From Candidatus Aenigmatarchaeota archaeon (GTDB lineage: Archaea; Aenigmatarchaeota; Aenigmatarchaeia; CG10238-14; SCSR01), in assembly GCA_038998585.1 (NCBI GenBank), contig JAVZGQ010000005.1, positions 1 to 56,493 on the forward strand: 56,493 bases of DNA, given 5' to 3'. Both the position numbers and the translations under genes were made by a program. Positions 17,361-54,747 of the stretch are shown here, one piece after another (position 1 is the stretch's first letter; each line of letters begins with the position of its first letter). The notes under the pieces are model-generated. The model saw nothing but the letters and a program-made list of their open reading frames with translations, had not been told where the DNA came from and did no database searches.

Positions 17361-17454
17361 GCCGAGGTCGCCTAATTGGTAGGGCACCGGTCTCGAATTT
17401 ATTAAGATAACCGGCGGGCGAAAGCCCATCTGGGTTCGAGTCCCAGCCTCGGCG
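17361..17454 (+). tRNA. tRNA-Ser(CGA) with 11-nt intron at 37/38 (17398-17408); CCA not encoded
   Basis: Acceptor GCCGAGG/CCTCGGC, discriminator G, long variable arm GGGCGAAAGCCC, T arm CTGGG-TTCGAGT-CCCAG, anticodon stem CCGGT/ACCGG. Confidence 0.88.
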
Positions 17455-49936: not shown

Positions 49937-49976
49937 CACTACCACAAGATCAAGGAGCTTATCAAGACCTAACAAT
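49937..49976 (-). other. 3' arm of 23S pre-rRNA processing stem (BHB)
   Basis: Inverted repeat of 53322-53361. Forms a GUCA/UGAU central helix with CUA and AAG bulges. Confidence 0.9.
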
Positions 49977-50227
49977 CTCAGGCTTTTAGTAGGAGCAGGC
50001 TCGCCTCTCGCTCGAAAGCTTGAGGCTTACACCTCTCCCCTATCAAGCTTGTAGTCTACAAGGGCCTTCGTCTTACTACCGATTCTTGCGAACCAGCAGT
50101 AAGAATGGTCGTCTATTTTTCCGGGTGGTTTCGTCCTTAGATGCTTTCAGGACTTATCCACACATGGCTTGGCTGCCCGGCGATGCATGTACAACCGGTA
50201 GACCAGAGGCCACGGAAGGGCGTTCCT

Positions 50228-50264
50228 TTTACGTATATCCAGCAAATCCCTAAACTGGGTATAT
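50228..50264 (-). other. 23S BHB intron, 37 nt, after ~2661 (sarcin-ricin loop)
   Basis: Central helix UACG/CGUA, bulges AA|A and AA|A. Splicing gives AGUACGAAAGGAAC. Confidence 0.88.
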
Positions 50265-50329
50265 TTCGTACTCACCCTTCCTTCCGGTCAGACGACCAGC
50301 ACCTCATGTAGATAGCGACCGAACTGTCT

Positions 50330-50390
50330 TTGTCGTCATATCAAATGTACAGCCTTAGATTTCTTCAATTTTTAATACACTTGACATGAT
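50330..50390 (-). other. 23S BHB intron, 61 nt, after ~2597 (H93)
   Basis: GUCG/CGAC, bulges UG|A and AA|A, long intron stem. Splicing restores GUCGUGAGACAG. Confidence 0.9.
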
Positions 50391-50510
50391 CACGACGTTC
50401 TGAACTCAGCTAGCGTCCCCTTTTAACTAGTGGGCACCTATACCCTTGGCCGCTGCTGCACGGCCAGGAGAGGGGGAGCCAACATCGACGCACCAACGCG
50501 CCGGGTCAAT

Positions 50511-50578
50511 TTACCCGTGCGAAGGGCTCTTGTTCAGAACAAGGCCTCGCTATCTTTGGGATGAATCCCCTTCGAGCA
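50511..50578 (-). other. 23S BHB intron, 68 nt, after ~2477 (H89 loop)
   Basis: GCCC/GGGU, bulges AC|U and AA|A, stem CGAAGGG/CCCUUCG. Confidence 0.82.
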
Positions 50579-50750
50579 GTGGGCTTTCACCGGCCACGGG
50601 CCCATTATCCCCGAGGTAGCTTTTCTGATACCCCCGGCAGCCATTAAGACCAACCGAGGTATCGCTAACCCACGCTTTCGCGGCTGGATTCCTCGCTTTG
50701 CGGAATCCAGTCAGGCCAGCTTTTGCGTTTACACTCTACTCCGGATTTCT

Positions 50751-50838
50751 TGCGGGTGGTAGAGTCTATTCTCATCAGCTACCTCCGAAATCATCGAAAT
50801 CATTCTGGAACGGTTCAATCATTGCTAGTCTCTACCAT
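50751..50838 (-). other. 23S BHB intron, 88 nt, after ~2306 (H84), contains C/D-box motifs
   Basis: CGGG/CCCG, bulges UC|A and CA|A, stem UGGUAGAG/CUCUACCA. Confidence 0.9.
50775..50822 (-). ncRNA. Putative intron-encoded C/D box guide RNA
   Basis: AUGAUUGA - 11 nt - AUGA - UUU - CGAUGA - 12 nt - CUGA. The D guide pairs 11/12 with 23S 50608-50619. Confidence 0.72.
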
Positions 50839-51046
50839 GACCCGGATGAGCTGACCTTTGGGCACCCTCGATCCTTTACCGAGGGTGTACCGCCCCAGCC
50901 GAACTGCCCATCTGACGCTGTCCTCTTTCGAGTTAGCGGTAAGGTTGCGAAAGGGTAGTGTTACACTTTCCTCTCAGCTTTTGGCCGAAGCCTAAGCCTA
51001 TAGCGAGTCCTACCTACTCTATGCAGTCACAACCTTACCACAACAT

Positions 51047-51077
<31 letters not shown>

Positions 51078-51206
51078 TTTCCCACATGAGGTCTCCGGCC
51101 TATTCACCGGAAAGGCGAGTTCACTGGGTCCCAGCCCAGGACAGTGGGGAAGTCGTTAAGCCATTCAGACGGGCCGTCATTTAAACGGCAAGGGATTACG
51201 CTACTT

Positions 51207-51253
51207 ATACCGCCCAAGGCGGCGATCATCAAAATCATATGACCGCCTCAGGT
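51207..51253 (-). other. 23S BHB intron, 47 nt, after ~1927, with D'/C' motifs
   Basis: GUCG/CGGU, bulges UA|A and AU|A, stem CCUGAGGCGG/CCGCCUUGGG, loop AUGA-UUU-UGAUGA. Confidence 0.87.
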
Positions 51254-51471
51254 TACGACGGTCAGAGTTACCGCCGCCGCTCTGCGGGGCTTCTTCCCGT
51301 TGGACCGGGCTTTCACACACCGCAGCTGGGCAGGCATCAGAGACCGTACTCATCCTTTCGGACTTGCGGTCTCCAGCGTTTTTGTTAAACAGTCGCTTCC
51401 CCCTTGTCACTGCGACCTGCTCTCCCTTGCGAGAGAACAGGCACCCCTTCTAGCGAACATACGGGGCCAAT

Positions 51472-51526
51472 TTCGGTTGAGTAAAGATCTTACCCAATTT
51501 TATATAATTAATCGACCTTCACCCAT
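51472..51526 (-). other. 23S BHB intron, 55 nt, after ~1677
   Basis: CGGC/ACCG (1 mismatch), bulges AA|A and AA|A. Splicing restores CGGCAAAUUGG. Confidence 0.83.
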
Positions 51527-51589
51527 TTGCCGATTTCCCTAGACTGGGTTCTCCCAACACACCTTTGCCTTCTCGGCAAGCCTACCTGT

Positions 51590-51621
51590 TTCCCGGAAGT
51601 ATAGTTTAAACTTATACTTCT
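51590..51621 (-). other. 23S BHB intron, 32 nt, after ~1615
   Basis: ACCG/CGGG, bulges AC|A and AA|A, stem GAAGUAU/AUACUUC. Splicing restores AACCGACACAGG. Confidence 0.85.
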
Positions 51622-53321
51622 GTCGGTTCTCGGTACGGTCATGGGGAATCCTTCCAGTTTTCCTTTTCACGGGCTCCAGGAATCAGTAGAACTTCCCATA
51701 CGGGAAGCCATTCCTGTATTCATGAGCTTCTCCTCATTAAGAGACTCCACTCACTTCAACAGTTAGCTTACGTCCACCTATCCCGAAGCGTCAGAAAACT
51801 GGCTTGCGTTGCCGCACGTATCCCCATGGCAGTCGAATATTAACGACTTTCCCTTTCGAGTGCTTCGGTTAAGAACACCCTTAGGACCGGCTAACCGCCA
51901 GCTGATCAACATTGCTGGCAAACCCTTAGGCTTCAGGTGGTTAGGATTCTCGCCTAACTTTGCTGTTACTTTCGGCAGGATCTTCAATCCTACACGGTCC
52001 ACCCCTGCTCACACAGAGGCTTCTGTCCATGCAGGACGCCTCCCTACTACTGCTTTCGCAGTCTAGGGTATCGGTAGCTAGCTTAGTCCCTTCCATTTTC
52101 AGGGCCTAAACTCTCGGTAGGTAAGCTGTTACGCACTTATTATCTGATGGCTGCTTCTAAGCCTACAGCCCTACTGTCTGAGAGTTCAGACACCCTTCTT
52201 CGTTTAGCTAGCATTAGGGACCTTAACCCTAGGTTGGGTTGTTCCCCTTTCGAGTGTCGAGCTTACCCCAACACCCTCACTCCGGTCTTCTAAGGCGGCA
52301 ATAGATTCGGAGTTTGACAGGAAGGCTGAACCTTTCGGTCCTTGACCAACCAATCAGTAACTCTACCCTATTGCCTACCTCTGACCAGGCTGCACTGACA
52401 TGCATTTGGGGAGGAACCAGCTATCGCCAGGTTCGTTAGGCTTTTCACCACTAACCCCAGGTCACCCGAGCGAATTGTGACTCAGCACCGGTAGCAGACT
52501 TCCATCCCCCTTTCGAGGGACTTCGTCTTACCCAGGGTTAGATCACCTGGCTTCGGGTCTTGTCCCAGTGATTTCAGGCACTTTCATACCCCGCTCCTCG
52601 CTCTTGCGAGCTGCGAGCTTGTCGCTTTCGCTTAGGCTACCTTGCGAAAGCAAGTTAACCTCACCACTGAGACAAACTCCCTGCCCCGTGTTTCCGCACG
52701 GACGACACGACCCTGTAATCTTCCTCTCTTACTCTCCTTTCGGATTTCATTCGAGGAAGAACCTTTCAGGCCATGTCTGACTATCACCACTTGGTTTCAA
52801 GCTCTTTTCACCCCGCTTTCGCGGTACTTTTCAGCTTTGTGTCACCATACTAGTTCGCTATCGGACTTCGGGAGTGTTTAGAGTTGGATGTTAATCCACC
52901 CAGTTTCCCACTTCCTATCCAGGAAATGGTACTCAGGATACCTGCCATCTTCCTTCCAGCCTTCCCTTACGGGGCTATCACCCTCTAAGGCACAGCTTTC
53001 CAGCAGATTTCAGGTCAGCTGGTTAGGAGGGGCACAGGTCCTACAACTCCACATCCTGTTTGGCTCTTCGCCAACCAGTTCGGTTTGCCCTCTACCGCTT
53101 TCGGTCGCCCCTACTAACGGCATCTCGATTGATTTCTCTTCCTGCGCCTACTAAGATGCTTCAATTCAGCGCGTTCCCTCTCCTTTCGGAGTTGGCCGAG
53201 GCCAACGATTCGCATTGATAGATCCTGGGATCTAAACCTGCGTGCGGTTACCCCAGGCTTATCGCAGCTTGCCACGTACTTCTTCGGCTCCGAAGCCAAG
53301 CTATCCACCAAGTGGCATAGC

Positions 53322-53361
53322 ATTGTTAGGCCTTAGTGACCTCCTTGATCCTATGGTAGTG
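53322..53361 (-). other. 5' arm of 23S pre-rRNA processing stem (BHB)
   Basis: Complementary to 49937-49976. Confidence 0.9.
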
Positions 53362-53605
53362 TCATTAATATGGTTTCAAATAGACAGTTCGCTCTTCATC
53401 TTTTTTCAGGCGAAAAAATTTTATCATCAACCTCCACTCTTCACCCCTTACTTTTGATAAGGAGTTGCATGTAGCTTGCTCACAAGGTGTCCACATCCTC
53501 ATCTTCTATCAGCACAAAAGGACAAGCTCATCGCTAAATAAAAAAGCCGATGCTTTAATTAAGCGCACATACCGACACCGGCAAAATAATAAGTTGTATT
53601 TTATA

Positions 53606-54185: not shown

Positions 54186-54270
54186 TGGACCGGCCGGGAT
54201 TTGAACCCGGAGCCTCGGCTTTGCAAGAGCCGCGATCTTTCATGCAAAGGAACCATTGATCTACCGGCCC
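54186..54270 (-). tRNA. tRNA-Ala(UGC) with 13-nt D-loop intron at 20/21 (54239-54251)
   Basis: G3-U70 pair, anticodon loop CUUGCAA, T loop UUCAAAU. The insert UCCUUUGCAUGAA forms a relaxed BHB on the GAUC/GAUC D stem. Confidence 0.9.
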
Positions 54271-54518: not shown

Positions 54519-54632
54519 TTAGGCTCCAGGAAGGTCCATTTAAAGGCTAATCAACTCACCTCCAACTCATCATCAATTCAGAGTCAAACCAAACTTTCAT
54601 CTTTAGCCCTAATTTTCTAGGACCTCCAGGAT
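54519..54632 (-). other. 16S BHB intron, 114 nt, between A1492 and A1493, contains C/D-box RNA
   Basis: GGGC/GCCU, bulges UA|A and AA|A, stem UCC.GGAGGUCC/GGACCUUCC.GGA. Splicing restores GGGGCUAAGUCG. Confidence 0.88.
54545..54608 (-). ncRNA. Putative intron-encoded C/D box guide RNA
   Basis: Terminal stem GGCUAA/UUAGCC, C AGAUGA, D' CUGA, C' UGAUGA, D UUGA. D' guide pairs 10 bp with 16S 54697-54706. Confidence 0.8.
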
Positions 54633-54747
54633 TAGCCCCTCTCACAGAACTTCAACTCGACTTGCTCATCGCAAGCCTCGGTGAAGCTCCGCTCGATTGG
54701 CTTGACGGGCAGTGTGTGCAAGGAGCAGGGACTTATTCAGCGAACGA

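Follow-up and report, generated by a model that had tools for sequence, protein, structure and literature searches.

The window analyzed here, positions 1 to 56,493 of contig JAVZGQ010000005.1, comes from the genome of a hot-spring archaeon assigned to Candidatus Aenigmatarchaeota (G000; 574 kb in 13 contigs, 34% G+C, 88% complete), and a ribosomal RNA (rRNA) operon lies on the minus strand at its end. Rfam searches of the window place the large-subunit (LSU) rRNA at 53332..49966 (2444 bits) and the small-subunit (SSU) rRNA from 56493 to 54657, the 5' end of the latter being cut off by the window edge; all features of the operon described below are on this strand. When the segment 50450-51000 is aligned to the Rfam archaeal LSU model, 92 nucleotides (nt) stand against 4 model positions in one hairpin loop, which we take to be that of helix 84 (H84). 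This loop holds an 88-nt bulge-helix-bulge intron (50751..50838), which falls between positions 2306 and 2307 of Escherichia coli 23S rRNA on alignment to rrlH. We propose that the body of this intron is a dual-guide C/D box small RNA (sRNA) whose two guides are aimed at the exons of its own host, and we put the probability of this reading, together with the mechanism proposed below, at about 0.82.

The splicing motif consists of two 3-nt bulges on opposite strands with a 4-base-pair (bp) helix between them, as is expected of a bulge-helix-bulge. The central helix pairs CGGG of the exon (50841..50844) with CCCG at the 3' end of the intron (50753..50756). The 5' bulge, UCA (50838..50840), lies between this helix and the intron stem and carries the 5' splice site, and the 3' bulge, CAA (50750..50752), carries the 3' splice site, as judged by inspection, from the loci of relatives and from RNA contigs. 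Within the intron, UGGUAGAG (50830..50837) and CUCUACCA (50757..50764) form an 8-bp stem that is at once the inner helix of the splicing motif and an extended terminal stem of the sRNA. By inspection, the outer exon-exon helix has at most 2 bp (G-C and A-U), so that the motif is of the relaxed form. Covariation was counted in an alignment of 19 relatives that runs from the P-loop of 23S rRNA through the downstream target (alignment A1). The central helix is 98.7% paired in this alignment, with two pairs altered on both sides (in 7 and 5 sequences), and all 8 pairs of the intron stem are altered on both sides among the relatives, with 98% of cells paired.

The initial annotation had already placed an intron in the H84 loop, and the RNA contigs agree. 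Contigs from four public sequencing runs, one of DNA (X2) and three of RNA (X9, X12, and X17), were mapped to positions 50400-51100. An X17 RNA contig passes from 50749 to 50838 through a joint that omits 88 nt and is ambiguous by one letter, the shorter side of the contig being 72 nt. In addition, the ends of X9 and X12 RNA contigs run from 50750 into sequence starting at 50839, and the reverse, and the X9 pieces show 1 mismatch to the window in 83 letters and 1 in 158. The intron is present in DNA, since an X2 contig (record 18) spans 50752-51016 with zero differences, and it is exactly removed in the RNA contigs. Joining of the exons yields a 7-nt mature loop, as in the intron-less relative L032. 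RNA-contig depth over the intron body (50760-50831) is 0 in X9, X12, and X17, and contigs of such standard libraries hold no small RNAs.

Read in RNA order, the intron body comprises a C box AUGAUUG (50816..50822), a 12-nt D' guide AACCGUUCCAGA (50804..50815), a D' box AUGA (50800..50803), a 5-nt loop UUUCG, a C' box AUGAUUU (50788..50794), a 12-nt D guide CGGAGGUAGCUG (50776..50787), and a D box AUGA (50772..50775) that lies 3 nt downstream of a CUGA. We parsed this layout (7-12-4-loop-7-12(13)-4) in 72 loci, which represent 53 distinct cores; a strict regular expression left 6 of 28 and 18 of 68 loci unparsed because of long internal loops, one-base shifts, or odd boxes, and covariance-model alignment was used for these. 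The two spacers are 12 and 12 nt in 46 of the 53 cores, including that of the window's genome, and 12 and 13 nt in the remaining 7. Lack of conservation of the boxes in related introns would, according to the initial annotation, have told against a C/D RNA. The boxes are conserved. RUGA of the C box is invariant, the D' box reads NUGA in 50 cores and ACGA in the other 3, and the D box reads NUGA in 52 (AUGA in 40, UUGA in 10, and CUGA in 2), with CUAA in the last; the C' box is likewise seen in the conserved cores. Side by side with this, we note that the segment 50788-50803, which takes in the D' box with the loop and the C' box with two further bases, forms two perfect tandem copies of the 9-nt unit AUGAUUUCG.

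The C/D consensus is RUGAUGA and CUGA, as given in the available part of PMC6009581, the kink-turn (K-turn) numbering of which we follow. The C box of the window is a RUGAUGA variant that has RUGAU without the terminal GA. In the 53 cores, the GA dinucleotides of the C and D boxes are invariant on both sides, and the pair adjoining the U-U position is that between position 6 of the C box and position 1 of the D box (C6-D1), for which the canonical RUGAUGA/CUGA K-turn has G-C. C6-D1 is of Watson-Crick type in 51 of 53 cores (U-A in 39, A-U in 9, and G-C in 3), and the equivalent C'6-D'1 pair is also of this type in 51. On these sequence comparisons, the architecture is far more than would be expected by chance. 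An Rfam search of the window at gathering thresholds returned no small-RNA family, and a permissive search (E up to 10) returned only two archaeal CD-box families, which align from C to D, end to end. The scores obtained with sR18 and sR20 are 12.8 and 11.8 bits against gathering thresholds of 45 and 44 bits, consistent with a similar architecture but not with membership.

In C/D RNAs, the nucleotide that pairs with the fifth guide base upstream of the D or D' box is the one that is methylated. Positions 2-10 of the D guide form 9 consecutive Watson-Crick pairs with AGCUACCUC, position 5 being an A-U pair, and the predicted site of 2'-O-methylation in the target AAGCUACCUCGG (50611..50622) is the U at 50618. 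E. coli GGUACUCCGGGG corresponds to positions 2436-2447, so that the U at 50618 is U2438 and the C at 50615 is C2441. For the D' guide, the target of which the initial annotation had left unresolved, the P-loop sequence GCUGGGGCGGUA (50888..50899) is the best site in the whole 6.5-kb operon when G-U pairs are allowed. The duplex has 10 consecutive pairs (8 Watson-Crick and 2 G-U) with C-G at position 5, and the predicted methylation site is the G at 50895; because E. coli CUGGGGCGG is 2248-2256, the second G (50895) corresponds to G2251. The P-loop target lies 76 nt upstream, and the D target about 135-150 nt downstream. G2251 is a predicted C/D sRNA target in 3 of 7 archaea according to the available part of PMC4644070.

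Comparison among relatives provides additional support for both predicted duplexes. In A1, 94.7% of the P-loop/D' duplex is paired, with covariation at two pairs: C to U in the target accompanies G to A in the guide in 3 sequences, and U to C accompanies A to G in 4. Seven pairs of the D duplex persist in at least 18 of the 19 sequences, one A-U pair being replaced by G-C in 5, and the eighth pair (columns 246/465) is unpaired in 4 of 19. The fifth-position pair is present at both targets in all 19 sequences (columns 8/177, GC in 18 and GU in 1; columns 249/462, AU in 19). Exceptions are an A-C mismatch at position 8 of the D' duplex in L008, a C-U mismatch at position 3 in L014-L018, and the absence of compensation at position 11 in L027. 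For the 33 pairs taken together, the paired fraction of cells is 93.5%, compared to 82.5% in column shuffles, none of 500 shuffles reaching the observed value, and sliding the partner by 1-3 columns reduces pairing to 33-50% of cells. When the guides themselves were shuffled, the D' match was equaled by 7 of 2000 sequences within 250 nt of the intron and by 79 of 2000 anywhere in the 6.5-kb operon, and the perfect 9-nt D match was reached by 147 of 20000 near the intron and by 978 of 20000 anywhere in the operon. A D-guide score that ranked pairs first and the Watson-Crick count afterwards did not discriminate (612 of 2000 shuffles reach the observed value). Support for the predicted guide-target pairing is stronger from the comparative data than from the shuffle tests.

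As part of establishing how widely this RNA occurs, we searched 61 related genomes with the 211 nt around the intron; 40 matched, and 30 loci were taken for comparison. An insertion of similar size is found at the same site in 20 of these loci, a longer one with the same core in 4, and none in 6, giving 24 of 30 with the same architecture at the same site. A sequence-only covariance model built from 21 cores (E up to 0.01) matches 76 of the 118 genomes of the order, and the four-box C/D RNA described by the initial annotation is borne out by this recurrence. We then classified 68 loci from 66 genomes by their rRNA flanks, using BLAST against the window's exons and operon. The H84-loop intron accounts for 33 loci (32 genomes) and free-standing copies, which lack an rRNA flank, for 34 (33 genomes). 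At the last, L073 of genome G083, the RNA occupies an insertion near E. coli 2236, about 13 nt upstream from the P-loop, and the H84 loop of that genome is uninterrupted. In the free-standing copies, the terminal stems lie directly beside the boxes (e.g., GGUGGC/GCCACC). The two arrangements are distributed by family: family f4 has only free-standing matches (20), f5 divides into 8 free-standing and 6 intronic copies, and in f1, counted together with G000, 29 copies are intronic, 5 are free-standing, one occupies the other site, and 4 weak matches are unclassified.

The presence of the intron and that of a free-standing gene appear to alternate. Ten of the 11 genomes in which the H84 loop is uninterrupted possess a free-standing copy, only G044 (97% complete) being an exception, and the covariance-model search detected no strong second copy in genomes that have an intron copy. 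Outside the order, 36 of 99 genomes sampled in the phylum, from other families of the class, also match the model. Among the best 18 of these other-family matches, 17 are without an rRNA flank, and the guide RNA of L161 (genome G143) resides in an insertion of about 190 nt at E. coli 2597/2598. Ten of these 18 loci could be parsed, and several have G at position 6 of the C box and CUGA as the D box. Two genomes (G083 and G143) thus hold the sRNA in introns at other 23S sites, and a single guide family, with predicted targets P-loop G2251 and U2438, is found in four settings: free-standing, in the H84 intron, in an intron near 2236 just before the P-loop, and in one at 2597/2598. All three intron sites are within the domain targeted by the guide RNA.

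Five protein genes of the host genome are relevant to how such an RNA might act. Those for fibrillarin and Nop5 are adjacent on contig 4, with the fibrillarin 81-83% identical to those of Candidatus Aenigmatarchaeota records, and L7Ae, EndA, and RtcB are also encoded. As separate observations on these genes, a second L7Ae-family match (C4:42203-42475) has one in-frame TGA, and the first 28 positions of RtcB are found in a separate short frame with a TAG (C1:32265-32348), which precedes the main RtcB frame by about 100 nt. In the mechanism that we propose, the intron would be transcribed within the pre-rRNA, and Nop5 and fibrillarin would join to complete the particle. The 12-nt D' guide would pair with the P-loop 76 nt upstream, placing G2251 fifth from the D' box, and the 12-nt D guide with the 2437-2445 strand downstream, placing U2438 fifth from the D box, and both nucleotides would gain a 2'-O-methyl group. 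This double pairing may also hold the two parts of the peptidyl transferase region together during folding. The splicing endonuclease would then cut at both 3-nt bulges, and RtcB would join the exons to give the mature 7-nt loop. The guides could act either before excision, in cis, or afterwards, in trans and possibly as a circle. In the relatives L005, L009, and L011, another intron interrupts the P-loop itself, and the D' guide can therefore pair only after that intron has been removed, which argues for late or trans action, at least in those genomes.

Several observations weigh against this interpretation. The joined RNA contigs could in principle originate from a near-identical relative that has no intron. 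The boxes deviate from the RUGAUGA/CUGA consensus (PMC6009581, available part), D1 being A rather than C here, and the best E value for any Rfam family is 0.57, with none reaching threshold. Moreover, the stem adjacent to the K-turn in this genome is a single C-G pair followed by an internal loop and then by 3-bp and 7-bp stems, whereas terminal stems begin directly beside the boxes in many relatives and in all free-standing copies. The single-sequence fold is not unusually stable (z = -0.68; 48 of 200 shuffles are as stable), and in the minimum-energy fold the H84 stem between the exons takes the place of the central splicing helix; we therefore used covariation as the test. Taken alone, the operon-wide D match is reached by 4.9% of shuffles and the D' match by 4%. 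The D' duplex contains only 8 Watson-Crick pairs and has two adjacent G-U pairs beside the target nucleotide, and in the L023 clade the D' guide is unrelated and lacks complementarity to the P-loop; in this genus (g6; L023, L083, L086, L087, L090, L097, L098, and L103), the D' guide is CAACCUUUGAUU or a close variant, and the D guide is unchanged. The covariance model has no match in 42 of the 118 genomes of the order. Finally, methylation at G2251 and U2438 is itself predicted from the guides, and we know of no organism with reported 2'-O-methylation at U2438.

Alternative explanations must be weighed against the same evidence. The initial annotation took CUGA (50778..50775) as the D box and UUUCGGAGGUAG as the guide, which would make C2441 (50615) the methylated nucleotide. 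The strings that it quoted (AUGAUUGA, ACCGUUCCAGA, AUGA, CGAUGA, UUUCGGAGGUAG, and CUGA) all lie on the minus strand where it had placed them, and its pairing of 11 in 12 positions with CUACCUCGGGGA (50619..50608), including two G-U and one G-G, is confirmed, as is the location of the target strand (2436-2447) about 135 nt downstream. CUGA is, in addition, the textbook D box, and it is present in the window's genome. Nevertheless, this register reads CUGA in only 15 of 53 cores, the others having CUCA, CUAA, CUUA, CUUU, and similar words, whereas the register 3 nt downstream has its NUGA in all but one core and covaries with C6 in 51. Spacers are 12 nt on both sides only if the downstream register is used, and the terminal stems of free-standing homologues start directly after its AUGA. 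With this register, the fifth-nucleotide rule gives U2438 (50618) rather than C2441, and we regard modification of C2441 as improbable. It is also unlikely, though somewhat easier to entertain, that the RNA pairs with both strands solely as a folding chaperone or as an aid to splicing that positions the exons, without any methylation. Both targets flank the intron and lie in one domain, the variant boxes and the two G-U pairs beside the D' target could weaken catalysis, and a chaperone role for double guides has been proposed (PMC4644070, available part). Such a role, however, does not account for the fifth-position pair being kept at both targets in every A1 sequence, for spacers of exactly 12 nt and K-turn covariation, which are requirements of a methylating particle, for free-standing copies that keep the geometry without having a splicing role, or for the retention of fibrillarin and Nop5 in a genome of only 574 kb.

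The intron might instead be a decaying passenger that is spliced normally but contains an sRNA that has lost its function in this genome, even though homologues remain functional. The imperfect stem next to the K-turn, the two G-U pairs of the D' duplex, and the lack of any RNA contig over the intron body would fit this idea; short RNAs, however, are not expected in assembled metatranscriptome contigs, the intron is the sole copy of the sRNA family in the genome, and all four of its boxes, like its two guide cores, are intact. The nearest relative, which is 94% identical over the region, has the same features and its own substitutions at non-pairing positions, and functional decay appears a rather poor explanation as a result. 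That box-like words and complementarities have simply arisen by chance in an ordinary non-coding mini-intron is hardly credible, even in an AT-rich genome in which UGA words are common and single-guide, operon-wide shuffles give 4-5%, given that the features are kept across the order and beyond, that four helices and two box pairs covary, and that free-standing homologues exist. Methylation of G2251 and U2438 by a guide RNA carried in the H84 intron is consequently the reading that we prefer.

Each part of this system is known in itself; what is new is its host, its variant boxes, and the way in which it alternates between gene and intron. The closest parallel is the intron of archaeal pre-tRNA-Trp (sR50 of Pyrococcus; also Haloferax volcanii), which contains a C/D sRNA that guides formation of Cm34 and Um39 in its own tRNA (available part of PMC7994747, citing Clouet d'Orval 2001). 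Like that RNA, the H84 element combines a bulge-helix-bulge intron with a dual-guide C/D body, both guides of which are aimed at the exons of the host. It differs in that the host is 23S rRNA, that the targets are 76 and about 150 nt away as opposed to a few nucleotides, and that copies of the guide RNA occur as well in free-standing form and in introns elsewhere in the rRNA. Among the genomic contexts of archaeal C/D sRNAs covered in the available part of this 2021 review (PMC7994747), tRNA introns are the sole intron location. The C/D sRNAs of PMC4644070, as far as the available part describes them, share the architecture, the target-nucleotide rule, the target region, and the P-loop nucleotide with the RNA reported here, which is set apart by variant boxes (AUGAUUN and AUGA, with U-A or A-U replacing G-C), by the location of its gene inside an intron of its own target RNA, and by the absence of an Rfam family match.

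The H84 intron resembles the archaeal rRNA introns of Thermoproteales and other groups, which occur with or without homing endonuclease genes, in having a bulge-helix-bulge within conserved rRNA and in being removed from the RNA (available part of PMC4496867). In that part of the paper, the short introns are described as non-coding, no function is given for them, and snoRNA, sRNA, box C, and methylation go unmentioned; the short intron here, in contrast, would encode a guide RNA. There is also a resemblance to the intron-encoded box C/D small nucleolar RNAs (snoRNAs) of eukaryotes, in which the guide is released from a host intron linked to ribosome production (PMC7994747, available part), but eukaryotic hosts are spliceosomal introns in mRNA or non-coding genes, whereas the H84 element is hosted by its own target rRNA and would be cut by an endonuclease of the tRNA type. 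Introns in rRNA were removed before target prediction in PMC6009581, according to its available part, and our full-text literature search, which covered a collection of open-access papers, turned up no description of a C/D sRNA within an rRNA intron.

Among archaeal introns, only that of tRNA-Trp had been known to contain a C/D guide RNA. Short archaeal rRNA introns have been treated as non-coding passengers, and the one described here probably carries a guide for two nucleotides in the peptidyl transferase region of its own host. Sister lineages that have the guide as an ordinary gene would offer a natural experiment on cis versus trans guide action, on how splicing, modification, and folding are ordered as archaeal ribosomes are assembled, and on the origin of intron-hosted guide RNAs. 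Moreover, C6-D1 covariation supplies a comparative rule for recognizing variant C/D boxes in DPANN genomes that standard searches would miss. The broader notion that rRNA mini-introns of Aenigmatarchaeota house methylation-guide genes, and that these genes move between settings, is one that we advance only tentatively. If it holds, bulge-helix-bulge introns can arise from sRNA genes or capture them, for example via circular sRNA intermediates, selection would favor a guide that is made together with and beside its target, and there would be a prokaryotic parallel to intron-hosted snoRNAs.

Resemblance to C/D sRNAs is not confined to the H84 intron and extends to further introns and spacers of these operons. 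In the spacer just past the 16S 3' end, a candidate at 54551-54600 has an 8-bp terminal stem and the layout AUGAAAG, 12 nt, CUGA, loop, AUGAUGA, 12 nt, UUGA, and its D' guide can form 10 pairs (9 Watson-Crick) with the 3' region of 16S rRNA, the fifth position falling at 54703. A further candidate (53376-53427) is located in the leader, a short way upstream of where the 23S rRNA has its 5' end; 10 consecutive Watson-Crick pairs are possible between its D guide and the peptidyl transferase center sequence AGACAGUUCG, the fifth position being 50327, which is approximately E. coli A2600. The intron that splits the P-loop in L005, L009, and L011 (genomes G003, G031, and G006) is about 100 nt long, lies about 60 nt upstream of the H84 intron (GGCUGGG and GCGGUAC being the flanking sequences), and has the C/D layout AUGAGGA, 12 nt, AUGA, loop, AUGAUUA, 12 nt, CCGA. 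The window's genome is without this intron even though G003 is 94% identical here, and L019 has at the same P-loop site a long intron with an open reading frame.

The LSU gene of the window contains additional insertions. One of about 68-70 nt (50511-50578) occupies the next hairpin loop of the peptidyl transferase center, presumably that of H89, at LSU model position ~2571. It has no evident C/D boxes; RNA contigs of X9, X12, and X17 join 50510 to 50579, omitting 68 nt, and one low-depth X12 contig retains it. An insertion of about 61 nt (~50330-50390) stands between E. coli 2597 and 2598, beside A2602, and is flanked by the complementary sequences CGUCGU and GACGAC. Relative to seven relatives, there are also short insertions of 32 nt (51593-51624) and 55 nt (51474-51528). 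Many other short insertions are seen in the LSU rRNAs of relatives, some with C/D-like words, as at positions 251-336 of L031. Regarding tRNA genes, ARAGORN identifies only 18 in the 574-kb genome, several of which have odd anticodon loops or are 85-100 nt long, and this suggests that many tRNAs of this organism contain introns. One of the ARAGORN predictions is a tRNA-Arg (gcg) in the 16S-23S spacer (54186-54270), and Rfam adds a tRNA of 94 nt at 17361-17454 that ARAGORN missed.

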